A stretch of 34,669 bases of DNA, taken from the IMG/VR virus record IMGVR_UViG_3300045988_094729; one strand, 5' to 3'. The stretch is from a virus. A program made the translations under genes and the position numbers. Positions 1-34,669 of the stretch are shown here, one piece after another (position 1 is the stretch's first letter; the number at the start of each line of letters is the position of its first letter). Below the pieces are notes generated by a model. It saw only the letters and a program-made list of their open reading frames with translations, made no database searches and was not told the DNA's origin.

Positions 1-55
1 CCAGCCACGATGTTTCTTTTGCCCCTGTGAGGTGTGGCGGGTCGAAAACAACAAG
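1..55. repeat. 55-nt terminal direct repeat (identical copy at 34615..34669); circular-closure overlap
   Basis: ccagccacgatgtttcttttgcccctgtgaggtgtggcgggtcgaaaacaacaag is present base for base at both window ends. Confidence 0.95.
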
Positions 56-1775: not shown

Positions 1776-2396
1776 TTATGAGCAATAGCTTTGCAGCACC
1801 GTCAATCTGTAACTGCCGTCATTATCCGGTGTGTCGTCAATCTGCACCGATTGGAGGATTATAAAAGCGGGGACAACCCCATCCGAGTACGAGGGGTTGC
1901 TGATGAAGGCGGAGCCGTCCGTGAGGACGTACCACGCGTTGACAGAGGAGTACTGTGAGGAAAGCCACCAGGCAGCAGCCGAGCCGTTAAAGGTCTTTTT
2001 GCGGTTATTCCGGCCAGTGAATATAGGCCATGTTAAGCCTTCTTCTGTTCCGTGGTTGTCGCCGCAGCCTACCATGGTCAACGTGGGAGCAAACACCTTG
2101 CGGGTTATATCCTCGGCGCCGCTGCCGTTATATAACGGGATCGTGCTTGGGATAATCATCTCTTTAAGCTCGTCGGGGTAGCTGTTGTATATTTCCGTCA
2201 TGCGTTCGTCCAGGTCTGATCCGGTGTATTTTGCGTTACCGCCGAACCGGCAAAAGCTATGAATATCTTTGCGGATAAGCGCAGCCACGCCTGCGCCGAA
2301 AAAGCCCAGGGTGTAGTCCGCCAGCTTATAGCTGTCATCTTCTTGTCGCTCGGGAATTTTGATGTTTGTCCCGAATGTCAGTTCTCCTAATTTCAT
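1776..2396 (-). CDS. free-standing DUF6273-like domain protein; paralogue of the N-terminus of the 16456..18207 tail protein
   Basis: AAAWWLSSQYSSVNAWYVLTDGSAFISNPSYSDGVVPAFIILQSVQIDDTPDNDGSY aligns with ARWWLSSLKSSGNAWYVSTDGFDNYNNPSKTYGVVPAFVIPQSTQLEDNQNPDGSY. Strong RBS (TAAGGAGGAC). The family name is from memory. Confidence 0.75.
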   Translation of the reverse strand: MKLGELTFGTNIKIPERQEDDSYKLADYTLGFFGAGVAALIRKDIHSFCRFGGNAKYTGSDLDERMTEIYNSYPDELKEMIIPSTIPLYNGSGAEDITRKVFAPTLTMVGCGDNHGTEEGLTWPIFTGRNNRKKTFNGSAAAWWLSSQYSSVNAWYVLTDGSAFISNPSYSDGVVPAFIILQSVQIDDTPDNDGSYRLTVLQSYCS

Positions 2397-3534: not shown

Positions 3535-3744
3535 TGCTACATCAAAAAAAATTGCCTGTACGCTCATACCATAATAATCAGCGATTGTGATTTTGACTTC
3601 ATCACGAGGCGTTCTTTCGCCGCTCTCATATTTTCGCAAGGACGATGCCGTAAGCCCCATTTCAATAGCTGCTTTTTCGCTACTTATGCCTTTTGTCTTG
3701 CGGCATTCGCGCAACCTACGTCCTATTTCTTCTCGCGTGGGCAT
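3532..3744 (-). CDS. Cro-like XRE-family HTH regulator (first gene of the lytic-direction operon)
   Basis: MPTREEIGRRLRECRKTKGISSEKAAIEMGLTASSLRKYESGERTP is a classic XRE HTH. RBS: GGGAGGTGAAAATC-ATG. The track ORF starts further upstream at 3789. Confidence 0.8.
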   Translation of the reverse strand: MPTREEIGRRLRECRKTKGISSEKAAIEMGLTASSLRKYESGERTPRDEVKITIADYYGMSVQAIFFDVA

Positions 3745-3874: not shown

Positions 3875-4192
3875 ATGGCTTTATTTGGTAGCCGAATTAA
3901 GCGTTTGAGAACAGAGCATGGCCATACTCAGGATGAATTAGCGAAACTTGTCGGGGTGTCAAGAAGCACAATCTCCATGGTCGAGCGCAATGAGCGCCGT
4001 CCTGATGATGAATTGCTCGAAACGATAGCCGACATATACAACGTTGATATGGATTACCTGTATGGGCGTCAAGAGGTCGAGAATCTTCATAGGCTTGTGT
4101 CCGAAAACGAGTATAAGCTTATACTGGCTTACAGAGAATTATCTCAGGAAGCCCGCGTTCTCGTCGATCATTTTGTATTATCGCAAAAATAG
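3875..4192 (+). CDS. CI-like XRE-family repressor (no peptidase domain)
   Basis: IKRLRTEHGHTQDELAKLVGVSRSTISMVERNERRP is an XRE HTH. The gene is divergent from the Cro-like gene and on the same strand as the integrase. It is only 105 aa. Confidence 0.8.
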   Translation: MALFGSRIKRLRTEHGHTQDELAKLVGVSRSTISMVERNERRPDDELLETIADIYNVDMDYLYGRQEVENLHRLVSENEYKLILAYRELSQEARVLVDHFVLSQK

Positions 4193-5816: not shown

Positions 5817-6929
5817 ATGGCAAGGCAAAGCGACGGGAGGTATAGGGCTAAAGTAACCGTCGGCAAGGATATGAACGGCGGCAGCGTGATAAAATATGTA
5901 TCCGGGCGCACAAAGAAGGATTTGGAGGCCGCGAAGGAGGCGGTCAAGCAAGAGTTCATCACCGGGCGCACCGCGCAGAAGGACGCGCTTTTCGGCCCAT
6001 ACGCCATACAATGGTATAACGTCTACAAAAAGCCGAATATAAAGGAATCGGCGCAGAGCGGATATAAGACGGCGCTCAACAAGCACATATTGCCGGTGCT
6101 GGGAGATAAGCGGCTCACCGCAATATCCACTATGGATTTGCAGGAGCTGCTTAACTCCAAGGGCGATACGTGCGTAACCATAATCGAAAATGTACACCAT
6201 GTGTTAGAATCCGTCTTTAAGCGGGCATACTCCGAGGGGATAATCCAGCGGGACGTGACCGTGGGGCTGGTCAAGCCCACGAAAGAAAAGTCAAGCCGCC
6301 GGGCGCTGACGGAAGCGGAGGAAGTGGCGGCAAAGAAGCTGATGCAGGAGGAAAACGGCCTGCTGGTGGCATTGCTGTACTACACCGGCATGAGGCTCGG
6401 TGAAGCCCTCGGCCTGCAATGGGAATGTGTAGATTTCAGGAGGAAGGTCATACACGTCCGGCAGCAGGTCAATTTAAGGAAGGGCATGATAACCCCGCCC
6501 AAGACGAAGGAGAGCATACGGGATATACCCCTGCCGGACGAGTTGGCGGAAATGCTCGTGCGGGGATTCCCGCAGGCGTTTGTGTTCCCCGCCACCGATG
6601 GAACATACTACCGCAATTCCTCTTCAAATAGGCTATGGCGTTCGCTGATGGAGCGCATGGCAGAGTTGGAGCCGGACATTGAAACGAGAGAGGACGGCGC
6701 CTCTATCCTCACGCCGCACTACTTCCGGCACAATTACGCCTCCATACTCTATAATGCCGGCGTTGACGTGCTTTCCGCGCAGAAATTCCTCGGCCATGCC
6801 AACGTAAAAGTAACGCTTGAAATTTATTCACACCTTTCAAAGGAAAAAGAGGACGCAAGCGCGGGCGCGGTTATGGACGCTTTCAAAAAAAGGTTGCCGG
6901 AAAGTTGCCAGAATGAAACCACAAAATGA
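5817..6929 (+). CDS. int: tyrosine recombinase / phage integrase
   Basis: YYTGMRLGEALGL (catalytic Arg box), HYFRHNYAS (HxxR) and LGHANVKVTLEIYSH (catalytic Tyr). N-terminal SAM-like arm. Confidence 0.9.
   Translation: MARQSDGRYRAKVTVGKDMNGGSVIKYVSGRTKKDLEAAKEAVKQEFITGRTAQKDALFGPYAIQWYNVYKKPNIKESAQSGYKTALNKHILPVLGDKRLTAISTMDLQELLNSKGDTCVTIIENVHHVLESVFKRAYSEGIIQRDVTVGLVKPTKEKSSRRALTEAEEVAAKKLMQEENGLLVALLYYTGMRLGEALGLQWECVDFRRKVIHVRQQVNLRKGMITPPKTKESIRDIPLPDELAEMLVRGFPQAFVFPATDGTYYRNSSSNRLWRSLMERMAELEPDIETREDGASILTPHYFRHNYASILYNAGVDVLSAQKFLGHANVKVTLEIYSHLSKEKEDASAGAVMDAFKKRLPESCQNETTK
6892..6913 (+). repeat. two tandem GTTGCCRGAA motifs (within the integrase 3' end)
   Basis: ggttgccggaa agttgccagaa. 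The same motif occurs three times at 7112..7142. Confidence 0.7.
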
Positions 6930-12208: not shown

Positions 12209-12220
12209 TGTATTGCTCCT

Positions 12221-12601
12221 TTATAGAGTAGTAATATAGTTCGCACCAAAGTCGAAATCGTCATAACTTAAATGATATTCACCACGAATGGTAATATCTG
12301 ACGTTACAGTATAATTGTATGTTCCGTCTTTTATTCCCCCAGCAGAGACCTTAACAGCACCATCTACTGTTACGAGACCACCGCCAGTAGGCCAACCTCT
12401 TTCAGTGGTACTATAATCAACACCTATGACCTCATTTGCGCCTACAATAAAACTTCCTCCGGTATAAACTGCGCCATTATATCTTATTGCATTATTGGCG
12501 CGTATACTGGTAGTATGTTGCCCAGTCAACGTAACTGTAAATGTTTTAGGTTTGCTCTTTGACATCATTCTGCGCCGTAAGGCAAACTGCAATGGTATCA
12601 T
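12221..12601 (-). CDS. fibre-tip paralogue B (N-terminus MIPLQFALRRRMMS)
   Basis: 126-aa low-GC ORF with no Shine-Dalgarno of its own. Its ATG overlaps the stop of the leader ORF 12598..12666 (ATGA). Confidence 0.65.
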   Translation of the reverse strand: MIPLQFALRRRMMSKSKPKTFTVTLTGQHTTSIRANNAIRYNGAVYTGGSFIVGANEVIGVDYSTTERGWPTGGGLVTVDGAVKVSAGGIKDGTYNYTVTSDITIRGEYHLSYDDFDFGANYITTL

Positions 12602-12666
12602 AGCGCGTAGGCGCTTTTTATTTTACGGAGGCTGCCCCCCCCCCCCGATAGAATTATTTTACACAT
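12598..12666 (-). CDS. 22-codon leader ORF containing the G12 tract (MCKIILSGGGGSLRKIKSAYAL)
   Basis: AAAGGAGCATACT-ATG (strong SD). In frame through G12. Terminates in ATGA with paralogue B. Confidence 0.35.
   Translation of the reverse strand: MCKIILSGGGGSLRKIKSAYAL
12635..12646. repeat. homopolymer C12 (G12 on the coding strand)
   Basis: Counted directly. It is the longest homopolymer in the window. Confidence 0.95.
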
Positions 12667-12679
12667 AGTATGCTCCTTT

Positions 12680-13048
12680 TTATTCTTGCCATGCTACATA
12701 GCGGTAAGTGCCGGTAAAGTAAACTTGATCATCCGAGCCGACCTTAACGTTTGCAATCGTGAACCCGCTGTCGTTCACAGTAAACTGAACGGATGATGCG
12801 TTCATATACCATGTATCCATGTCAAAACATAATACGTTGCCATCGTATGTACTCAAAACATGAAATTGTAATGCTGATTCCGCCCTCTCTGACGCTATAA
12901 ACACCGCAACATGGTCGGGTCTAAAGCCTGTTTGAGCAGATATTGATATTGTTGTCAAATGGGAATTTCCCGCATCTATCGTTCCCGTTGCTATATTTTT
13001 CGCCTTTGCCATGTTGCTCATCAGCCTCCTTCGTAGCATAGGTATCAT
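12680..13048 (-). CDS. fibre-tip paralogue A (N-terminus MIPMLRRRLMS)
   Basis: ATG at 13048 overlaps the TGA (13047..13045) of the fibre -1 extension. SD GGAGG lies 10 nt upstream. Low GC. Confidence 0.65.
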   Translation of the reverse strand: MIPMLRRRLMSNMAKAKNIATGTIDAGNSHLTTISISAQTGFRPDHVAVFIASERAESALQFHVLSTYDGNVLCFDMDTWYMNASSVQFTVNDSGFTIANVKVGSDDQVYFTGTYRYVAWQE

Positions 13049-15173
13049 GCGCTCACAACCTCCTGTACTGCCCACACGCCATTGTATACATCAAATTCAT
13101 AGGTCTTGTTTGCCTCTATTGCCGGGGCCGCGCCAATGAATGTGCCACTAAATGACACCGATACACTACTACCCGTAGTAAATGTGCCATGCGCCCAGCC
13201 GGATGCGGGAGGGGTGAATACATATGTACCAACAGGAGAAGATGCATTATATATAGTATTTGCCGTCAGTGCCGCGCCACTGGCGGGGAGGGAGGTTTCC
13301 TGTGTGGGTGGCGCGACATAATCAGTGCCGGGAATAGCAGCTTCAAAGAATGAGCCGTCACTTTTTTTATCATCGGATAATCAGTACGTTCGGACAAATC
13401 TACGGTCATTTGGACATACTGATTAAGCACGGCGAGAAGCGCAAGCGGCGATACATAATCACCTACGCTTGTGTCGGCATCCATGTCTTCAGCTGCCGCC
13501 ACTTTGCCGCCTGCACCCTTGAGCATGCCGTTAATGTTGGTCGCGGTGTCGGCAGTTATCTCGTTAGGGCCAGCGGGGCCCTGTTCGCCCTGTATGCCGG
13601 GGTCACCTTTCGCTCCCGTATCGCCCTGCGGGCCTTTGATGCTGGTACTTGCGGGGTTATCCAGTCCACCGTTATTGCTCCATGAGATTATGCCCTCGGC
13701 AGAGACGGCGGGGGTAAAATACGGCCCGGTGTCGCCCTTGGGGCCGGTGTCGCCTTTCACTCCCTGCTCTCCCTTTGCGCCCTGCTCACCAGTCGCGCCC
13801 TGTTCTCCCTTGGGGACGCCGAACTTAAAGGCAAATACCTTCGCGGTATCTGCGCCGGAAGCTGTCACCTCTACAGTAGCGGGGGTTCCCGCGTCAAGGG
13901 TGGTCGCCGTGGCGGTAGGTGTGCCGAATCCGGCGGCTTCGCCCGTGGGGCCTTGTTCTCCCTGCGGGCCTTTTATGTTGGCTTCGGGGGGATTAGCGAG
14001 GCCGCCGTTGTTTGTCCATGAGATAACTCCCTCGGCGGATACCGAGGGGGTAAAGTAGGGGCCGGTGTCGCCTTTAGCTCCGGCTGCGCCGGGGTCGCCC
14101 TTGGGGCCCGTATCGCCTTTAGGGCCAGTGGGGCCTTGCTCACCTTTTGCGCCCTGCAAGGGGCCGTTGTTTACCCACTTGGAATTTACGCCGTCCCAGA
14201 TATATATATCATACGGTTCGCCCGCGCCCACGCCGTAAGCGTCGCCAGCGGAGGGGTTAGATACTCCGGCTTGTAATGCCGAGAGAGAAGTGTAATAGCC
14301 CAACACGGCAAATCCTTCACCCGTATCGCCCTTGGCTCCCTGTGCGCCCTGTGGCCCCCTTATATTGACTGTGGCGGGGTTTTCCAGCCCGCCGTCATTA
14401 CTCCACGATAAATCGCCGTCAGCGGTCACAGAGGGCGTATAGTGCGCTCCTGCGGGGCCTCGTTCGCCCGTGGCTCCCGTGCCCCCTTTGGGGCCCGTTT
14501 CTCCCTTGTCTCCGGGGTCGCCTTTAGGCCCTTGGATACCCTGTTCACCTTTGGGGCCAGTGGGGCCCGTTTCTCCTGCGGCTCCCGTGTCGCCTTTATC
14601 GCCTTTCTTGCCTTCGGGGCCTTGGGGGCCGACGGGGCCGGGAGTGCCGTCCTGCCACGCCGAGCCGCTTGCGGTTCGAGTGAGTACCTGCCCCGGCGTT
14701 CCGCCCGCCGGCAATCCCCCGCCGCCGGATCCGCCGCCGCTCTGCGCCGCCTCGTTTATGGCCGCTACAAGGGTATTCTTGTCCGCGGTGGTCAACTCGT
14801 CCATGTCGCCGATTTTTGCAAGGAGTTGTTCGTACTGCGTCAGGGATATATCCGGCAGTTCGCCATCCGCAGCGCCGAATGGCAGTACGTCAAACCATAC
14901 CGGGCCCGCCGTCACGCGGCTGTCGGCCTTTATGCCGGATAGTTTCAGTTCCCAGCGTCCTGCAGTGAGGTTTATTCCCTGCGCTGCAGTGATTTCGCCA
15001 CTTGTGAGCTCCGCGGTTATGGTCTTATCTCCGCATACAAAATAGGCCGTGATAACGCGGCCGTTCCAGTCGGCGTCAAACGCAAATTTTGCAGTCAGAT
15101 AGTTTATGCTGTCCGCCACCACAAGTGGTGTACGCAGCATAAGCCTCTGCCCGCGTATAATGCCTGTAAGCAT
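13045..15173 (-). CDS. collagen-like tail fibre. The zero frame stops at 13266 (635 aa); the -1 frame after A AAA AAA (13368..13362) extends it to 13045 (709 aa).
   Basis: Long G-X-Y runs (GPQGPEGKKGDKGDTGAAGETGPTGPKGEQG...). A module Y(F)TPSVSAEGxISWxNNGGLxNP occurs three times. A startless 105-codon -1 ORF reads SDGSFFEAAIPGTDYVAPP...YEFDVYNGVWAVQEVVSA. Confidence 0.8.
13362..13368 (-). other. A AAA AAA heptamer in X XXY YYZ phase (candidate -1 shift site or A-tract indel)
   Basis: The zero frame reads ATG ATA AAA AAA GTG. The -1 frame opens only 4 codons upstream (TGA TTA TCC GAT GAT AAA AAA AGT). Confidence 0.6.
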
Positions 15174-16463: not shown

Positions 16464-18207
16464 ACTCTATTCTCTCCATATTGTCCGTCTGCTGTATGCT
16501 GCACGAAAATGCCCTGAAAAACTGGTCTACGCTCAGTTCGAAGCCCATCAGCGGGCCGGTGCACAGGCAGCCGTGCTGATCTCTGTATATCACGGTCTTG
16601 CCCAGCAGCCCCTCAAAAGCCGCTGCCTGCGCCGCATCGTTAAAAGCAGCGTTAAAACTGTATATTTTGGTTATTTGCTGCGAGGTCTCAGCCACGGGAT
16701 ACCGCCGCCCGGCGTAAAACTGATACGCTACATCCTGATACGCCGACACGCCCAGCGGGCTATTCTGCGCGGTGGAATATTCCAGCCGCAACCATTGCAT
16801 TTCACCCAGCGCCGCTATCTCCGGCGCGTCTACCGAAAGCGTGACCGTGACCTCATTGGACATGGAGTAACTGTCTCCAGCAACGCCGCGCACTTTATAT
16901 TTGTGCGTCCCTATGGCCATTTGGTCGGAGTATGTGTGTGCCGTGGTTTTTGCTATTGGTATGTCATCGCGGTAAATATAGTAAGTTTTGTGATCCGTTT
17001 CTGTCCATGCAAGGGCCGCTTTTTCGCCGCCCGCGGCAAAAAGTGTTATTGGCGCGCCCGGGGTGTTGGCAACGGTAAATTCAGCCGTTCCCCAATCGCT
17101 CCAAAGGCCATATTCGTTTTGTATCCGCACCGCGGCTATGTGCGCGCCATCATTCAGGTATTCTTTAACCTTATACTGCCCGTCAGTGCTGTAAGCGGTG
17201 CGGAGCACCGCATCGTCTACCTTCACCTGATAAGCAAGCTGCCCTTCGCCTGTCCACGTTATCACCGGCCTTGGGCTTGCCGTTGCGGCTACCGTCGGTG
17301 TGGATGGTTTGCCCTGAGCCGTAAACGATACTTCCGTGCTCCATGCGGATACGGCATCATAAATATTAGTGCAGCGCACACGCCAGTATACGGTTCCCGC
17401 AACTAAGGTGTTCGGCGGTATGTCGGCGTATGTGTTTGCCGTTTCTCCTGTTTGCAGCTCCGTCCATTCTGTATGTGACGTGTCTTTATATTGCAGTTCG
17501 TATTTTTTCTGTGGGATGCCGTTTTCGCTTTTGTACGTCCACTCGAATCTTACGGTCTCCCAGCTTCCGGCGTATGTGTTTTTTGGTTTTGTCGCCGTTG
17601 CGGTTATTTTATCGTTTGGGAACAGGCCCTTTATGTAGTAGCTGCCGTCGGGGTTTTGGTTATCTTCCAACTGTGTTGATTGAGGGATTACAAAAGCGGG
17701 GACAACACCATACGTTTTCGAGGGGTTGTTGTAGTTGTCGAAGCCGTCCGTGCTGACGTACCAGGCGTTGCCAGAAGATTTCAGCGAGGAAAGCCACCAG
17801 CGGGCAGCCAAGCCGTTGAGGGTTTTAATCCTCGTGTGTAATTGGAGGGTTTTGCCCTCCGCAACTCCGTTGTTATTGCCGAAGCCCGCCATGGTGTAGG
17901 TCATGGCAAACATCTTACGGGTTATATTGCCAGAGCCGGAAAGATTAAACGTTACGTCCATCATTTTTTCGCGCAGCGTTTGCGGGAAACTGTTGAATAT
18001 CGTATTTTTTATAAGATTATCCAGTGTTCCGTTCGGGTATAGGGCCGAGTTTCCAAACTCCGATTCTTCGTACACTCTTTTGTATACCAGCACCGCTCCG
18101 CCGGATACGAGGTTATCTTTATCCGCCACTTCGCATAGCCTGTTTTCTTCGGTGCCTACCGGGATGAGTATTGTTGCCCCCAGCGGCAAGTCTGCTAATG
18201 TCGCCAT
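16456..18207 (-). CDS. distal tail protein (Dit-like) with N-terminal DUF6273-like domain and Ig/FN3-like repeats
   Basis: 583 aa, directly after the tape measure. N-terminal ~200 aa are paralogous to ORF 1776..2396. The middle shows repeated beta-sandwich-like W..W...F.. patterns. Confidence 0.6.
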   Translation of the reverse strand: MATLADLPLGATILIPVGTEENRLCEVADKDNLVSGGAVLVYKRVYEESEFGNSALYPNGTLDNLIKNTIFNSFPQTLREKMMDVTFNLSGSGNITRKMFAMTYTMAGFGNNNGVAEGKTLQLHTRIKTLNGLAARWWLSSLKSSGNAWYVSTDGFDNYNNPSKTYGVVPAFVIPQSTQLEDNQNPDGSYYIKGLFPNDKITATATKPKNTYAGSWETVRFEWTYKSENGIPQKKYELQYKDTSHTEWTELQTGETANTYADIPPNTLVAGTVYWRVRCTNIYDAVSAWSTEVSFTAQGKPSTPTVAATASPRPVITWTGEGQLAYQVKVDDAVLRTAYSTDGQYKVKEYLNDGAHIAAVRIQNEYGLWSDWGTAEFTVANTPGAPITLFAAGGEKAALAWTETDHKTYYIYRDDIPIAKTTAHTYSDQMAIGTHKYKVRGVAGDSYSMSNEVTVTLSVDAPEIAALGEMQWLRLEYSTAQNSPLGVSAYQDVAYQFYAGRRYPVAETSQQITKIYSFNAAFNDAAQAAAFEGLLGKTVIYRDQHGCLCTGPLMGFELSVDQFFRAFSCSIQQTDNMERIEYD

Positions 18208-19920: not shown

Positions 19921-20450
19921 TTACGTACCTCCCAAAAATGCGGATAGGCTTTTAGTTTTCTCCTGCGTTATGCCCTGCATTTTTGCATATTCTTTGATTA
20001 TTCTTGCTATCCTGTACGGCGTGGCCGTTTTCCAGAATTCCCTTTCACTCAGTCCGAATCGTATCACCCATACCGTAAGATACCACGCGAAATTTATGGG
20101 TTCGTCTTCCGCGTGGTTTTCGCGTTTTTTGGTTCCGCTTCCTCATCGCCGCGAAGCGCCGCTGCAGTCAGTTCCATCACGAGCGACGTTACGCCCGAAA
20201 GCTGTGAGGGCGGTATGAGCCGCCCCACTTGCTTCACGGTATAAGACTTGTCGGAGCCCTCGCTGTCAAGATAGTCGTTTATCATGGCAGTCAAAAAGCA
20301 CACGATTGTCTTTGTCGTAGCGCTCCTGAGCGCTTTTGATATATTGCCGTCAAACATTTCCTGCACGTCCGCCAGCACATTCATGTTGCAGCAGAGGGTC
20401 ATTTCCTGTCCGTCAAAGGTGTATTTTGCGGTTTTCAGTCTTATATCCAT
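19921..20450 (-). CDS. tail assembly chaperone G (20094..20450) and -1 frameshift product GT (to 19921)
   Basis: CCA AAA AAC at 20132..20124. The -1 frame reads ...RENHAEDEPINFAWYLTVWVIRFGLSEREFWKTATPYRIARIIKEY... and ends in TAA immediately before the tape-measure ATG. Confidence 0.8.
20124..20130 (-). other. slippery heptamer A AAA AAC (programmed -1 ribosomal frameshift)
   Basis: In the correct X XXY YYZ phase of ORF 20094..20450, 10 codons before its stop. Confidence 0.75.
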
Positions 20451-21777: not shown

Positions 21778-22118
21778 GCCGTCACCACCCTCTGAGCCTT
21801 AATCTCCAAAAATTCCCGGCGGTCGCCTATGTTGTCTATGCTGATGATCTCGTAAGGCTCGGCATCCCGCTCATGCCATATGCGGCACTCGACGGTCACA
21901 AGGGGCGAGTAGCGCATGGTTATGGTCACGGGCTGCCGCAAGTGCAGTTCTTCCGCCTGATATACCTCCGTACCGTGGGCATTCACCCACTTGCACCACA
22001 CGGGGCCGGGGAAAACATTTTTAAAGCTTTCCGCGCTGAATCCGGCTTTGATGCTGTATTCCGGCGCTTTTATGGTGATTTTCGTTCGCATTGCGCCTGC
22101 TCCGGCTTTAATTGCCAT
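21774..22118 (-). CDS. head-tail adaptor (head closure, SPP1 gp16 / Phage_H_T_join-like)
   Basis: MRTKITIKAPEY...VWCKWVNAHGTEVYQAEE...PYEIISIDNIGDRREFLEI. ATG at 22118 overlaps the upstream TGA. Confidence 0.7.
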   Translation of the reverse strand: MAIKAGAGAMRTKITIKAPEYSIKAGFSAESFKNVFPGPVWCKWVNAHGTEVYQAEELHLRQPVTITMRYSPLVTVECRIWHERDAEPYEIISIDNIGDRREFLEIKAQRVVTA

Positions 22119-22615
22119 CAAAACCACCAGCCTTTATATTGATTCAGCATCGCGCGAACCGCTATGTCTATCTCGGTCGTAGAACCCTGTATCACAGCCT
22201 CCCGGTTGGTGTACCAATGGCCTATGAGCAGGAGCATGGCCTGTCGCACAAGGTAGGGTGTCTCCTCGTATCCTGCGGTGTAGGTTATGACTGCGCCGGG
22301 CTTGTTTACCGTCACAGTGCCGCGGCGCACGTCTGCAGTATACTCCACCGCCTCGCCGTCCACCGTAACGCTGTCCACGCTTATCACGGGGCCACGCGGG
22401 AGTGTCACAGTGCCGCTCACCTCCGGGTAAGCGGTTATGGACTGCTCCGCAAATGACTTCCCGCAATAGTTCTCGCAATATTCGCGGGCCGCGCTTATGA
22501 GAGGAGCTATTATATCCTTGTCCTCGCTGGTATCGCCGGGGTTATTCCGCAGATGCAGTTTTACCTCTTCGAGGCTTAGCGGTTCCACTGCTGGGGGTTG
22601 TCTTGTTATTACCAT
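22118..22615 (-). CDS. head-tail connector (gp6-like, QLRG-type DNA packaging protein)
   Basis: LSLEEVKLHLRNNPGDTSEDKDIIAPLISAAREYCENYCG is a typical N-terminus. RBS GGAGGCCGACA-ATG. Confidence 0.7.
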   Translation of the reverse strand: MVITRQPPAVEPLSLEEVKLHLRNNPGDTSEDKDIIAPLISAAREYCENYCGKSFAEQSITAYPEVSGTVTLPRGPVISVDSVTVDGEAVEYTADVRRGTVTVNKPGAVITYTAGYEETPYLVRQAMLLLIGHWYTNREAVIQGSTTEIDIAVRAMLNQYKGWWF

Positions 22616-22748
22616 TGTCGGCCTCCATGGCTATGGCGTAACAGCCCCTGATGAGCTGCCGCGCCGTTGCCTCGTCTATGTCAATGATGGAGCCGGGCGG
22701 GGTTACTCCCTCCGGCCCGGCTGCCAAGGTCAACATTTTGATTTTCAT
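22542..22748 (-). CDS. small protein following the capsid gene
   Basis: 68 aa (MKIKMLTLAAGPEGVTPPGSIIDIDEATARQLIRGCYAIAME). Its start abuts the capsid stop, and it overlaps the next gene by 74 nt. Confidence 0.5.
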   Translation of the reverse strand: MKIKMLTLAAGPEGVTPPGSIIDIDEATARQLIRGCYAIAMEADNGNNKTTPSSGTAKPRRGKTASAE

Positions 22749-23935
22749 CAGCTCGCCTTCATTTTCAGACGGCTGAACGCCTCGCCTACTACGGGTGCGC
22801 CGTCGCCATAGTACTCGACAACGTAGCCTATCTCGTTGTTGACGGCGTACAGCTCGTTAAGCACCTGTATGTAGAGGCCGTCGCTGTCGCATACCCAATA
22901 GCCGGTTTTAAAGTCGCCGTATACTGCCACGTACTTGCCCGCGGCTACGGCGTTAGGCGCGTACTCGGACATATACACGGGAGCGCCCAGCAGCATATCA
23001 GGCTGTCCTGCCTGCACGGAGGGCTGCCATATATACTGGCCGTCGCTGTCCTTGAGCTTTGCGATCATCTTGCAGAGGTCGCGGTGCATTACCCAGGAGG
23101 CCCCGCGCATATACTGGCCCTTCACGCCGTATTTGCACTCTATCAGGTCGTCGGTGGCCACGGCGGTGGCGGAAGCGGCGGTAACGTCGCGCCCGGTGGC
23201 TATGCCGCTGTCAGAGGCGGTAAAGATGCCCAAAGGCTGGTTAGTGCCCGTTCCGCTCATAAAGGCGTTTTCCTGCGCCGCCTCGATCTTGTACAATATG
23301 CGGTCAAGCACGGTCTGATCAGGGCTGGGTGCGTGGCGCATGAGGGTCTTGGATATCTTAATCAGTTTGGCAAGGCGCTGGGGCTTAAATTCGCGGCGGC
23401 CGAAGGCGATGGTCGCCTCTTCGGGGGCTGCCGCCACCTCGGTTGTCCATGCCACATCAGACGCATCGGTAGTCAGGCTGGGATACCCAAGGCTCTGTGC
23501 CTGACCTATGGGGCCTACGACGTTGCATATCTGGCGCATAAACATGTCATTTTTGAGCCCGGCTATGAGCTGGTTGACAAATTCCACGGGTGCGGTCAGA
23601 TAACCGGCGGTAGCGTTTGTGCCAAGGGTCATGGTGGTGTTTTTGTACCTGGTTATGGACTCGGGATCGCCCTGCAGTGCACGGGCAAATACTTTAATGT
23701 GCTCGTCCTTCTTGTCGCCCAGCTTGTCGATCACTTCACCGGCGGCGCGTTCCCGCTCGAGCTGCTTCTGCTCGCGGATTATGTTGGCGTTGAGCGCGTC
23801 AAACTCCTTTTCGAGCCGGTTATAGGTCTCGGTGGATTCCGCGTCCATCACGCCGTCTTCAAATTTGTTCATTATTTCGCGCATCTGGGTTGCGGCATTT
23901 GCGCGATCCTGCATCATTTCGTAGAGCTTTTTCAT
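22748..23935 (-). CDS. major capsid protein, HK97 family
   Basis: 395 aa with an N-terminal coiled-coil delta-like region then the capsid fold. Sits in portal-protease-capsid synteny. Confidence 0.85.
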   Translation of the reverse strand: MKKLYEMMQDRANAATQMREIMNKFEDGVMDAESTETYNRLEKEFDALNANIIREQKQLERERAAGEVIDKLGDKKDEHIKVFARALQGDPESITRYKNTTMTLGTNATAGYLTAPVEFVNQLIAGLKNDMFMRQICNVVGPIGQAQSLGYPSLTTDASDVAWTTEVAAAPEEATIAFGRREFKPQRLAKLIKISKTLMRHAPSPDQTVLDRILYKIEAAQENAFMSGTGTNQPLGIFTASDSGIATGRDVTAASATAVATDDLIECKYGVKGQYMRGASWVMHRDLCKMIAKLKDSDGQYIWQPSVQAGQPDMLLGAPVYMSEYAPNAVAAGKYVAVYGDFKTGYWVCDSDGLYIQVLNELYAVNNEIGYVVEYYGDGAPVVGEAFSRLKMKAS

Positions 23936-23942
23936 CGGTTAC

Positions 23943-24671
23943 TTATACCTCCAAAATTTTTAGTTTAGTCGCTCTGAATCTCTTGCGCTGCTCCTGCAGT
24001 GCGGTGTTTATATCTGCTGCGGGCTGGATTGCTCCCCCGTTGTCAGGCTCCCTGTTTTCCGGCGGTTCCTTCGGCGCGTGCTTGTACAGCGCAAACCACT
24101 TTTCGCTGTTTACACAAGCCGCGATCTTTTTATTCTCGATCAGTTCATCCACAAATCCCATGTCGAGCGCCTCGGCACCGCTCATCCATGTTTCTGCTGT
24201 CATAAGGGCGGATATCTCGTCTTTCTCCTTGCCGGTGCGGGCGGCGTATATGTCCGCTATCTGGTCGTTGATACGGTCGAGCTCGTCGGCGGTCCTGCGT
24301 AAGTCCTCCGCCCCGCCGCCGGCGTATGTCCATGCATTATGTATCATCAACGTGGCGTTTTCGGGCATTTTGATGGTATCGCCCGCCATGGCAACCACTG
24401 ATGCGGCGGAGGCGGCGAGGCCGTCTATATGCACGTTTTTTGTCGCCGGGTGGCGGTTCAGTATGTTATACAAGCTAAATCCCGCAAAAATATCTCCGCC
24501 GGGGCTGTTTATATACACATCAAGGGTGGATATATCCCCCAGCGCCGTCAATTCTTTTTGAAATTGCGCAGGGGTTATTTCGTCGCCCCACCATGACGTA
24601 TCGCTGATCTCTCCGTACAAAAAAAGCTCGCCGGCGTTGCCGAGAGCTTTAAACTCCCAAAATTTATTCAT
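23943..24671 (-). CDS. ClpP-like (S14) prohead protease
   Basis: LFLYGEISD...INSPGGDIFAGFSLYNIL...AASAASVVAMAGD. Confidence 0.85.
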   Translation of the reverse strand: MNKFWEFKALGNAGELFLYGEISDTSWWGDEITPAQFQKELTALGDISTLDVYINSPGGDIFAGFSLYNILNRHPATKNVHIDGLAASAASVVAMAGDTIKMPENATLMIHNAWTYAGGGAEDLRRTADELDRINDQIADIYAARTGKEKDEISALMTAETWMSGAEALDMGFVDELIENKKIAACVNSEKWFALYKHAPKEPPENREPDNGGAIQPAADINTALQEQRKRFRATKLKILEV

Positions 24672-25926
24672 TTTTCAGGGGTGCTCCTTTCGCTTGCGCG
24701 CTTTTAGGCGCGTTGAGTTTTGCGTTTTCCAGCGGCAGCATGTTGCCGTTGATAAAGTATATCTTTCCCAGCCCATCGGGTATGGGGTTCATATCCTCCA
24801 GCTCGCGGATATCGTCAGCACACATCACGCCGTTTTGCCGCATGGTGTTGTAGTAGCTCGTGCGGGTGGCGGTGTCGCCCCTCAGCAGGCTGTTTGTGTT
24901 GAATTTAAAATAATACTTCGCCTGCTCCGCCCCGCTCAACAGGTCACGGTAAAGGGCCTGCTCTATACGCACGGATAAAGGATTTATGCAATCCCGGACG
25001 AATTCGGCGCTCTGCTGCTCAATATTTGAAAAAGTGGCTTTTTCCAGATCCATGCACATGTGCGGGGGTACGCCGAAAATGCGACATATCTCGGTTACAG
25101 CCCATTTGCGGCTATCAAGGAGCTGTGTCTTTGACATGTCCCTGTCCCACGGCTGCGCCGTGGAGCCGTTTTCCAGAAACATCCATTTCCCGGCGTTTTC
25201 TGCGCCGCCGTAGTTGCTCTGGAAGTCCTTTTTGAAGCGCTCGTATGCCGTATCGGAGAGTTGCCCCGGATAGGTTATATAGCCGCCGGGGGAAGTACCG
25301 GAAAAGCCCCTTTGCGCGTATTGTGTCATGCTGTTATTCAGTCCCAGCACGCTTGCGGCTATGGCCATTGGGTCTTCCGGCGTGCGGTCGCCAAATCTAA
25401 AACCGGGGATAAAGACAAAATCGCCCTCCCGGAGCGTTTCTGTTATGCCGTCATAGGTGACGTATATATACTGTTCCCCGTTTTCCCGGTTGGTGTACAC
25501 TTCCGAGCAGCAGGAGGTGGGCAGATTTTTGAGGTGTCGCACAAAGCCGTATCTGTCCCGCACTATGCGGAGATACCCGCCGCGAGTGAGCAGCATGTTT
25601 GCCACAAGCATCTGCATAAGCTCATACGCCGTGGTGGTGCGGTTGGGCAGCACATACAACAGCTTATACAGGGGATGATCCCGTGCCTTTTGTTTGCCCT
25701 CCCCGGTATTTTTGTACATGTGCAGGGGCAACGCCGCCATAGTCTTGCTTATCAGGTCAACGCACCGGAATACCGCCGCGACCTGTAGCGCCCCCTCTGC
25801 GCTTATGGTGTAACCCTGCCCTGCAAGATACATCTGCCATGCGCTATCATCAGATACAGATGGCAGCGGTTTCACGTTCGCCGCCCGTATCTCGTATGTT
25901 TTGCCAAAAAGTTTAAATTTCTTCAC
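24664..25926 (-). CDS. portal protein, HK97 family
   Basis: 420 aa between terL and the protease, with a typical portal length and pattern. Confidence 0.85.
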   Translation of the reverse strand: MKKFKLFGKTYEIRAANVKPLPSVSDDSAWQMYLAGQGYTISAEGALQVAAVFRCVDLISKTMAALPLHMYKNTGEGKQKARDHPLYKLLYVLPNRTTTAYELMQMLVANMLLTRGGYLRIVRDRYGFVRHLKNLPTSCCSEVYTNRENGEQYIYVTYDGITETLREGDFVFIPGFRFGDRTPEDPMAIAASVLGLNNSMTQYAQRGFSGTSPGGYITYPGQLSDTAYERFKKDFQSNYGGAENAGKWMFLENGSTAQPWDRDMSKTQLLDSRKWAVTEICRIFGVPPHMCMDLEKATFSNIEQQSAEFVRDCINPLSVRIEQALYRDLLSGAEQAKYYFKFNTNSLLRGDTATRTSYYNTMRQNGVMCADDIRELEDMNPIPDGLGKIYFINGNMLPLENAKLNAPKSAQAKGAPLKNE

Positions 25927-34384: not shown

Positions 34385-34669
34385 TTAAATAACTCCCTTC
34401 ATAAAACACGCCCAGAACGTTTGTGATTTTTTCCCGCTATGGTGCCCAAACAGCGGCTTCTGGCCAATAGCTGCCCACACCTTATCCGCCGGAATATCGC
34501 GTTCGCTCCATTTAAAAATAAGGGTTCCGTCGGGTTTCAGAACCCTCATGCACTCTGCAAAGCCGTCATGCAGCATTTGTGGCCAGTTGTCGTCAAGCTT
34601 CCCGTATTTTTTAACCAGCCACGATGTTTCTTTTGCCCCTGTGAGGTGTGGCGGGTCGAAAACAACAAG
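34385..34669 (-). CDS. DNA methyltransferase, C-terminal part (continuation of 265..1 across the circular junction)
   Basis: ...VVFDPPHLTGAKETSWLVKKYGKLDDNWPQMLHDGFAECMRVLKPDGTLIFKW... runs in frame across the 55-nt repeat. Confidence 0.75.
   Translation of the reverse strand, partial: LVVFDPPHLTGAKETSWLVKKYGKLDDNWPQMLHDGFAECMRVLKPDGTLIFKWSERDIPADKVWAAIGQKPLFGHHSGKKSQTFWACFMKGVI
34615..34669. repeat. second copy of the 55-nt terminal repeat
   Basis: Identical to 1..55. Confidence 0.95.

Follow-up and report, generated by a model that had tools for sequence, protein, structure and literature searches.

The fiber gene and its frame change

The window analyzed here is the whole of IMG/VR virus record IMGVR_UViG_3300045988_094729, 34,669 nt of DNA, and the element in question is its tail fiber gene, which is read from the minus strand and changes frame at a run of seven A residues (A7). 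Genes at this locus follow the order tape measure, DUF6273 protein, tail protein, a small open reading frame (ORF) and the fiber, and then come endolysin and holin. The zero-frame ORF of the fiber gene (15173..13266, minus strand) encodes 635 aa, comprising an N-terminal attachment part, four collagen-like stretches, repeated 'YFTP.VSAEG.ISWSNNGGL' units and a 31-aa out-of-frame tail. The Pfam family Collagen (PF01391) matches the zero-frame part in four stretches with E = 1.2e-19, and PHROG tail fiber families match it with a best E of 9e-41. Judged by these matches and by the gene order, the zero-frame product is a collagen-like phage tail fiber encoded within the tail module.

At the frame change, the minus strand reads ...GAT TAT CCG ATG ATA AAA AAA GTG ACG..., with the A7 homopolymer (13368..13362) lying in phase as A AAA AAA. 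In the zero frame, MIKK is followed by 31 residues, VTAHSLKLLFPALIMSRHPHRKPPSPPVARH, and a stop (13361..13266, minus strand). The same DNA encodes the distal module when read in the frame used by relatives that have eight A residues (A8), and the tail, by its translation, is an alternative frame of module-coding DNA and no domain. The -1 frame opens four codons ahead of the lysine codons (LSDD-KK) and continues over 13362..13045 (minus strand) for 105 codons plus TGA, which specify the linker end SDGSFFEAAIPGTDY and then a conserved distal module of ~95 aa with the pattern PP..LPASG.ALTANTIY..GWAHG..YEFDV.NGVWAVQEVVSA. Its stop (TGA, 13047..13045) overlaps the ATG of the next gene on the minus strand in an ATGA at 13048..13045. 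A -1 shift at the run would give MIKK-SDGSFFEAAIPGTDY...YEFDVYNGVWAVQEVVSA, ending ...VWAVQEVVSA, and a fused product of 709 aa. There is no ATG in the -1 frame, and GTG occurs only at codons 75, 102 and 109, deep within the module; since the frame has no usable start, the module would have no independent initiation. The two products can be told apart by peptides, SDGSFFEAAIPGTDYVAPPTQ... for the fused form and VTAHSLK or LLFPALIMSR for the zero-frame tail, and a ATCAAGAAG-type sequence is the silent control form of the A7 tract.

A preliminary description of this DNA had reported that the fiber runs on in the -1 frame for 105 codons to the ATGA, that this frame opens four codons before the heptamer and that it contains no start codon. 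Translation confirms the first two statements, and the third is effectively right, the three deep GTGs being the only candidates. Its positions for the tract, the ORF, the -1 frame and the ATGA also hold; its placement of the ATG slipped by three bases, as the ATG lies at 13373..13371 and the span 13370..13359 contains only ATA AAA AAA GTG. The long homopolymers that it cited elsewhere in the window do exist at 3544..3551 and 24619..24625, a check that covers their positions only. Further A7 or T7 runs of the window include those at 6885 and 9183.

The -1 frame encodes a conserved distal module

The -1 frame had been called protein-like, and a 171-aa query spanning the junction matched 692 database proteins, the best of them with 89% identity over 100% of the query (E = 1e-92). 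By this homology, the -1 frame is real coding sequence. Its last ~95 residues contain 36 invariant columns among 50 aligned sequences. A structure model of the module is all-beta with seven strands and a mean pLDDT (predicted local distance difference test score) of 81.6. Structural matches of the module in BFVD are to tail fiber, tail, collagen-like and tropism-determinant proteins (best E = 1e-12), and a fold search of PDB gave only weak tailspike-domain matches (best E = 0.012).

We then counted how the module is encoded among the 76 IMG/VR loci with a recognizable module end. At 55 of them the module lies inside an open frame of 193-960 codons, at 20 it has an ATG of its own and forms a stand-alone ORF of ~97-114 codons, and at the remaining one it is cut by a contig edge inside the module. 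None of the 76 loci is split at the junction. The stand-alone module at locus L020 (P0026-type) is a genuine gene with its own ribosome-binding site. Because the module is found both fused to many fibers and as a genuine stand-alone gene, it is a portable distal fiber domain. In GTDB genomes it was found in one genome only, a Clostridiales metagenome-assembled genome.

Module-only proteins of ~96-100 aa were considered as further broken fibers. The P0026-type protein was set aside for its own ribosome-binding site, as a true stand-alone gene, and P0009 is a contig-edge artifact: at positions 1..32 of its contig (L102; ENA ERZ14206909 NODE_92200), the start of that contig, a Nextera transposase adapter, CGTCGGCAGCGTCAGATGTGTATAAGAGACAG, makes a false upstream stop and thereby a spurious 100-aa protein. 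P0047 (L019; Logan ERR13955056, a related phage) does reflect a real break, which arose from a 17-nt tandem duplication and not from a homopolymer. There, GCAGGCGGCAAAGTGGC is present twice at 3990..4025, just upstream of the module, and breaks the fiber frame; the module is left intact, and gene calling made of it an ORF of its own, 100 aa long and starting at an internal GTG. As read from this contig, the junction is also disrupted sporadically by other routes in nature.

Variation within the module alignment (NASSP/AVADA/AVATA) prompted us to consider targeting by a diversity-generating retroelement. No template repeat and no second copy of the module DNA are present in the window, and no reverse transcriptase was found among the Pfam-annotated genes of the ~22 kb shown for contig L004, the remaining ~13 kb of the window not having been scanned for one. 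Within that scope, such targeting was rejected.

Relatives carry A8 and a continuous fiber gene

The closest proteins (P0001-P0003, 84-89% identical) read ...DYPMIKK(S/A)DGS(F/L)(F/L)EAAIPGTDY... in a single ORF, and the A8 sequence ATGATAAAAAAAAGTGAC is present in the DNA of L001 and L003. In its A8 form the run encodes Ile-Lys-Lys-Ser (ATA AAA AAA AGT) in the linker just ahead of the distal domain. Three states of the tract were seen: (i) A8 followed by GT in six distinct contigs (L001, L003, L008, L011, which is the same contig as L018, L016 and L017), each with one continuous ORF ending ...VWAVQEVVSA; (ii) A7 followed by GCT in L002, which is in frame; and (iii) A7 followed by GT, out of frame, only in the window (= L005) and in L004. 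The flanks of the tract in L008, L011/L018, L016 and L017 are identical to those of the window, and the window's own N-terminus is found in L008, where it is cut by the contig end, and in L017. The window differs from A8 relatives by exactly one A. Its module is intact, with a protein sequence identical to that of in-frame relatives such as P0004.

A change of a single A therefore toggles the frame between a 709-aa-type continuous fiber (A8) and a 635-aa truncated one (A7); both states occur on identical flanks, the out-of-frame A7 in a single lineage. The preliminary description had made its finding depend on conservation of the downstream frame, and P0001-P0003 and the A8 contigs do read the module in one ORF. 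Near-identical DNA was not matched in GenBank phages, nor was the tract pattern in GTDB genomes. Homology searches with the zero-frame-tail version and with the linker alone returned nothing and missed even P0001-P0003, a limit of the word index that makes them uninformative. An exact look-up of the 709-aa fused protein found no record, which carries no weight since the look-up of the 635-aa protein failed too.

The A7 allele is shared by two genomes of one lineage

L005 is the ENA record of the window (sample SAMEA2161597, assembly ERZ28576096) and has the same A7. L004 is a Logan contig of run ERR14020357, produced with another assembler, and encodes the exact 635-aa product. It differs from the window by 90 mismatches over 12.2 kb, has 97.7% identity in another block and carries a replaced segment just after the fiber gene. 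Only two single-nucleotide polymorphisms separate window and L004 between 22093 and 13066 (9 kb), and the differences are clustered in recombined blocks. With so few polymorphisms and such clustering, the two A7 genomes belong to one recent lineage, and A7 counts as one inherited event and not two. Because the lineage is recent, the intact module in the -1 frame is uninformative on selection.

The difference blocks lie at 13042..12212 and 22100..25024, and one block boundary coincides with the end of the fiber gene, directly after the invariant ...VWAVQEVVSA codons. This position suggests that the conserved module end plus the ATGATACC junction acts as a recombination seam.

Loss of one A in assembly was among the options that had been raised. 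L004 is a distinct strain, run and assembly, and the same pipelines and technology give A8 in relatives, which makes a random assembly error unlikely: the identical A7 was recovered in a second strain through a different run and pipeline, and the related assemblies are all A8. From this comparison, it is almost certain that A7 reflects a real deletion of one A from A8 and that this deletion was inherited.

The window has an exact 55-nt terminal direct repeat (1..55 and 34615..34669) and closes as a circle. The circle, of ~34.6 kb, is a complete temperate phage genome with an integrase, and the repeat length of 55 nt matches an assembler k-mer overlap. The L004 contig is about genome length. 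Judged by these contigs, excision or replication of the A7 lineage seems to be under way in two samples. There are two possibilities for its persistence: the phage may tolerate a truncated fiber, or length changes in the tract may be frequent enough to have an effect.

The A7 tract lacks the features of a programmed frameshift site

The heptamer at 13368..13362 is a slippery X XXY YYZ sequence in the zero frame (ATA AAA AAA). A stimulator of -1 frameshifting would be a downstream structure ~5-9 nt away or an upstream Shine-Dalgarno-like sequence. No stimulatory structure lies at the right distance, there being a weak local stem beside the tract and a single strong hairpin, which begins ~42 nt downstream and so too far away; the 141 nt around the site show no unusual folding (z-score -1.4), and no GGAGG is found upstream of the tract. 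Among aligned relatives, variation is low over the full ~180 nt of the linker cassette, a stretch that is not centered on the tract.

In the field, recoding is recognized by a slippery run plus an overlapping-ORF layout that is conserved among homologues (PMC1088944). The two-frame layout is not conserved here, given the six A8 contigs, the single-ORF A7+GCT contig and the lack of any split at the 76 loci. Bare A-rich heptamers in E. coli give ~0.1-0.3% frameshifting over a background of ~0.05% (PMC4066793), and efficient transcriptional slippage uses runs of ~9, or 8 in some organisms (PMC1088944), a length that A7 does not reach. The earlier proposal that two C-terminal isoforms are made by programmed -1 slippage is unsupported on these counts: relatives are A8 and continuous, the junction is nowhere split, no stimulator is present and conservation extends over the whole linker. 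From this comparative evidence, the fiber site is not a conserved programmed recoding site.

The window does contain a probable tail-assembly-chaperone -1 site, an in-phase A AAA AAC (CCA AAA AAC) at 20130..20124 on the minus strand, between a 118-aa gene and the tape-measure gene. Its -1 extension is roughly 70 codons long and ends just before the tape-measure start. Because slippage on an A-rich heptamer would be available in this host through the chaperone site, trace rescue at the fiber tract is plausible, which would not turn the fiber site into a programmed one.

A hypervariable poly-G leader and cassette genes lie downstream of the fiber

The gene that follows the fiber (13048..12680, minus strand) encodes 122 aa starting MIPMLRRRLMSNMAKAK... 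(MIPMLRRRLMS...), and PHROG assigns it no function. Its AGGAGG Shine-Dalgarno sequence (13064..13059, minus strand) is 10 nt before the ATG, inside the invariant last codons of the module (VQEVVSA). In relatives such as L020, this gene travels with the module as a cassette. The 'ATGATACC' junction recurs in the window, with ATGA at 13048..13045 and again at 12601..12598.

Between these cassette genes, in the region 12683..12598 (minus strand), lies a leader mini-ORF, MCKIILSGGGGSLRKIKSAYAL, which in the window is 22 aa long and has an ATG at 12666 and a GGAG (12676..12673) six nt upstream. The TGA of the leader overlaps the ATG of the next gene (12601; ATGA 12601..12598), which has no Shine-Dalgarno sequence of its own. 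Within the leader is a hypervariable poly-G run (12646..12635, minus strand), ~700 nt downstream of the A-tract. We compared this run in 32 related sequences. The leader runs into the ATGA overlap with G9 (15 sequences) and with G12 (one sequence), and it stops early with G8 (nine sequences), G10 (six) and G11 (one), so that ATGA coupling is kept by G9 and G12 only. Different lengths occur on identical flank haplotypes, and the window (G12) differs from its ENA copy (G11) at this run only. By its pattern of lengths, the poly-G run looks like a contingency tract that gates translation of a swappable cassette gene, although the variation could alternatively be Illumina noise at long G runs. PolyG tracts in receptor-binding genes of Campylobacter phages are reportedly contingency loci.

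The gene after the leader (12601..12221, minus strand, in the window) always begins MIPLQFALRRRM... (MIPLQFALRRR...), and at loci L004, L017 and L020-L097 this start is followed by at least eight unrelated bodies of 114-297 aa, some with DUF6273. The start of the gene directly after the fiber, MIPMLRRRLMS, resembles that of the post-leader gene, and both stand at a 'ATGATACC' overlap. Compared across these loci, the arrangement resembles a system of cassette exchange in which the junction sequences are conserved. Neither of the window's two cassette genes (13048..12680 and 12601..12221) has a PHROG match.

Another repeat in the window is a 164-nt direct repeat with 77% identity, located at 1834..1997, near the lysogeny end, and at 17663..17826, in the DUF6273 tail gene.

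Discussion

We think it likely that the window carries a truncation allele of a normally continuous 709-aa fiber gene, in which a slippage-prone run naturally lost one base (A8 to A7) and the loss has been inherited. Replication slippage would have deleted one A within the I-K-K-S linker codons. Ordinary decoding of the A7 sequence yields a 635-aa fiber in which 31 nonsense residues take the place of the conserved distal beta module of ~95 aa, and termination shifts to 218 nt before the next gene, away from the ATGA overlap. The next gene need not be silenced because it has its own AGGAGG. A7 would act as an OFF or truncation allele, and full-length fiber would come from rare events only: reversion to A8, transcriptional insertion of an extra A or a -1 slip on A AAA AAA. 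Judged from the published rates for bare heptamers, these events probably sum to well under a few percent. Frameshift alleles of this sort, at slippery homopolymers, are already known.

Several observations weigh against a simple truncation allele. The allele is shared by descent in both A7 genomes and so represents one event, which speaks to persistence and not to recurrence. The A7 genomes look complete and actively replicating, which is somewhat hard to square with a crippling mutation and may leave room for compensation or for a functional short form. The phage has its own A-rich chaperone site, and heptamer slippage in this host may perhaps exceed the E. coli figures. Homopolymer length is not fully stable between contig versions, as the poly-G run of the window (G12) and of its ENA copy (G11) illustrates, and the tract states come from assembled contigs, which allows for an A7/A8 mixture within a sample.

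One other possibility is that A8/A7 is a reversible DNA-level switch under selection, with the module ON in A8 and the fiber truncated, or OFF, in A7, which would diversify host recognition. It overlaps with the truncation allele on the DNA facts and further requires that the run flips back at a high rate and that the phage profits from this. In its favor, A7 and A8 are both found in natural sequences with the same flanks, the module of the OFF allele is perfectly intact, and this allele persists in two samples as a seemingly active circular genome. The far clearer poly-G run 700 nt downstream, at which half of the sequences keep the coupled frame and half do not, also fits, and poly-A contingency has been shown experimentally for the 9-base A run of phage T2 agt (PMC12633550). 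However, the OFF state occurs in one of eight lineages against about 50:50 for the poly-G run, and with eight A residues the tract is among the shorter of hypermutable runs. The tract consists of the I-K-K-S codons of a low-variation cassette with no sign of selection on the run, whose extendability L002 broke through its GCT at no apparent cost. A selected switch at the A-tract is a tentative reading that we regard as rather unlikely.

The frame change could instead belong to programmed recoding in this lineage, which would make two isoforms at a set ratio through a -1 ribosomal shift or a transcriptional A insertion. None of the other relatives examined has the two-frame layout, and the lineage of the window and L004 is so young that its keeping of the layout says nothing. 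Nor is there a stimulator; the efficiency of the bare motif is ~0.1-0.3% in E. coli, and A7 is below the lengths known for efficient transcriptional slippage. We consider recoding quite improbable, even though the heptamer is in phase and of the canonical X XXY YYZ form, A_AA.A_AA.A is used by IS elements (PMC4066793), the phage's tail-chaperone site is a related heptamer and the module has no other route to expression, its -1 frame being without a usable start. There is also a precedent for poly-A rescue of a truncated structural gene with two needed forms in Citrobacter rodentium tssM1, at A11 (PMC4256274). Very improbable, finally, is a sequencing or assembly artifact over a true A8 genome with a plain 709-aa ORF. 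The A8 state of relatives and the G12/G11 difference between the window and its ENA copy at another homopolymer would fit with such an error, but the window, its ENA copy and an independently made Logan assembly from another run and strain all show the same A7, and six related contigs are all A8 at the site, so that systematic under-calling is not seen. The window's other homopolymers were also reported as in frame by the preliminary description, of which we confirmed the positions alone.

In annotation, the gene should be entered as a frameshifted allele of a 709-aa-type fiber; splitting it into a 635-aa protein and an orphan frame, or labeling it a recoding site, should be avoided. The distal fiber domain is attached through a mutable run, and if A7/A8 read mixtures exist, this would be a natural phase-variable fiber tip in a human-gut temperate phage. 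For phase variation, the poly-G leader is a stronger lead than the A-tract. It is conceivable, though on balance doubtful, that two homopolymer switches operate at this host-recognition locus, A8/A7 for the distal module and G8-G12 in a 13-22-codon leader for cassette coupling. The window would in that case represent one phase combination, with the module OFF and the cassette ON. Two such switches would amount to phase-variable tropism in uncultured gut clostridial temperate phages, with a translational-coupling design for which our literature search found no phage description.

Comparison with known systems

Like the -1 frameshift sites known from phages and mobile elements (tail chaperone G/GT; dnaX; IS1/IS3), the fiber tract is an in-phase A-rich X XXY YYZ sequence that would give a C-terminally extended -1 product. 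Canonical sites keep their two-frame layout across homologues and often have stimulators, and the fiber site has neither. C. rodentium tssM1 (Gueguen et al. 2014, PMC4256274) is similar in that a structural gene is without its in-frame C-terminal domain, has a poly-A run just before the stop and has that domain coded in another frame. The tssM1 run, at 11 A, slips efficiently, its two products are both needed, and the same frameshifting affects a related gene of Yersinia, whereas the fiber gene has 7 A in an arrangement that is not conserved.

The poly-A run of T2 agt and other simple sequence repeats of T-even phages (Gomez, Barrick and Waters 2025 preprint, PMC12633550) share with the fiber tract an in-gene homopolymer at which ±1 switches the frame, the occurrence of both lengths among natural variants and a location in a host-interaction gene. 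At those loci reversibility and a raised rate were measured; the fiber tract is known from its sequence alone, with the OFF length in one lineage and a host group of uncultured gut clostridia. Pseudo-pseudogenes (Baranov et al. 2005, PMC1088944) have runs of 9 and efficient transcriptional slippage, and rescue at A7 should be much weaker. As in those genes, a single-base homopolymer indel breaks an ORF that is continuous in homologues, and a small amount of full-length product could in principle be recovered by slippage at that run.

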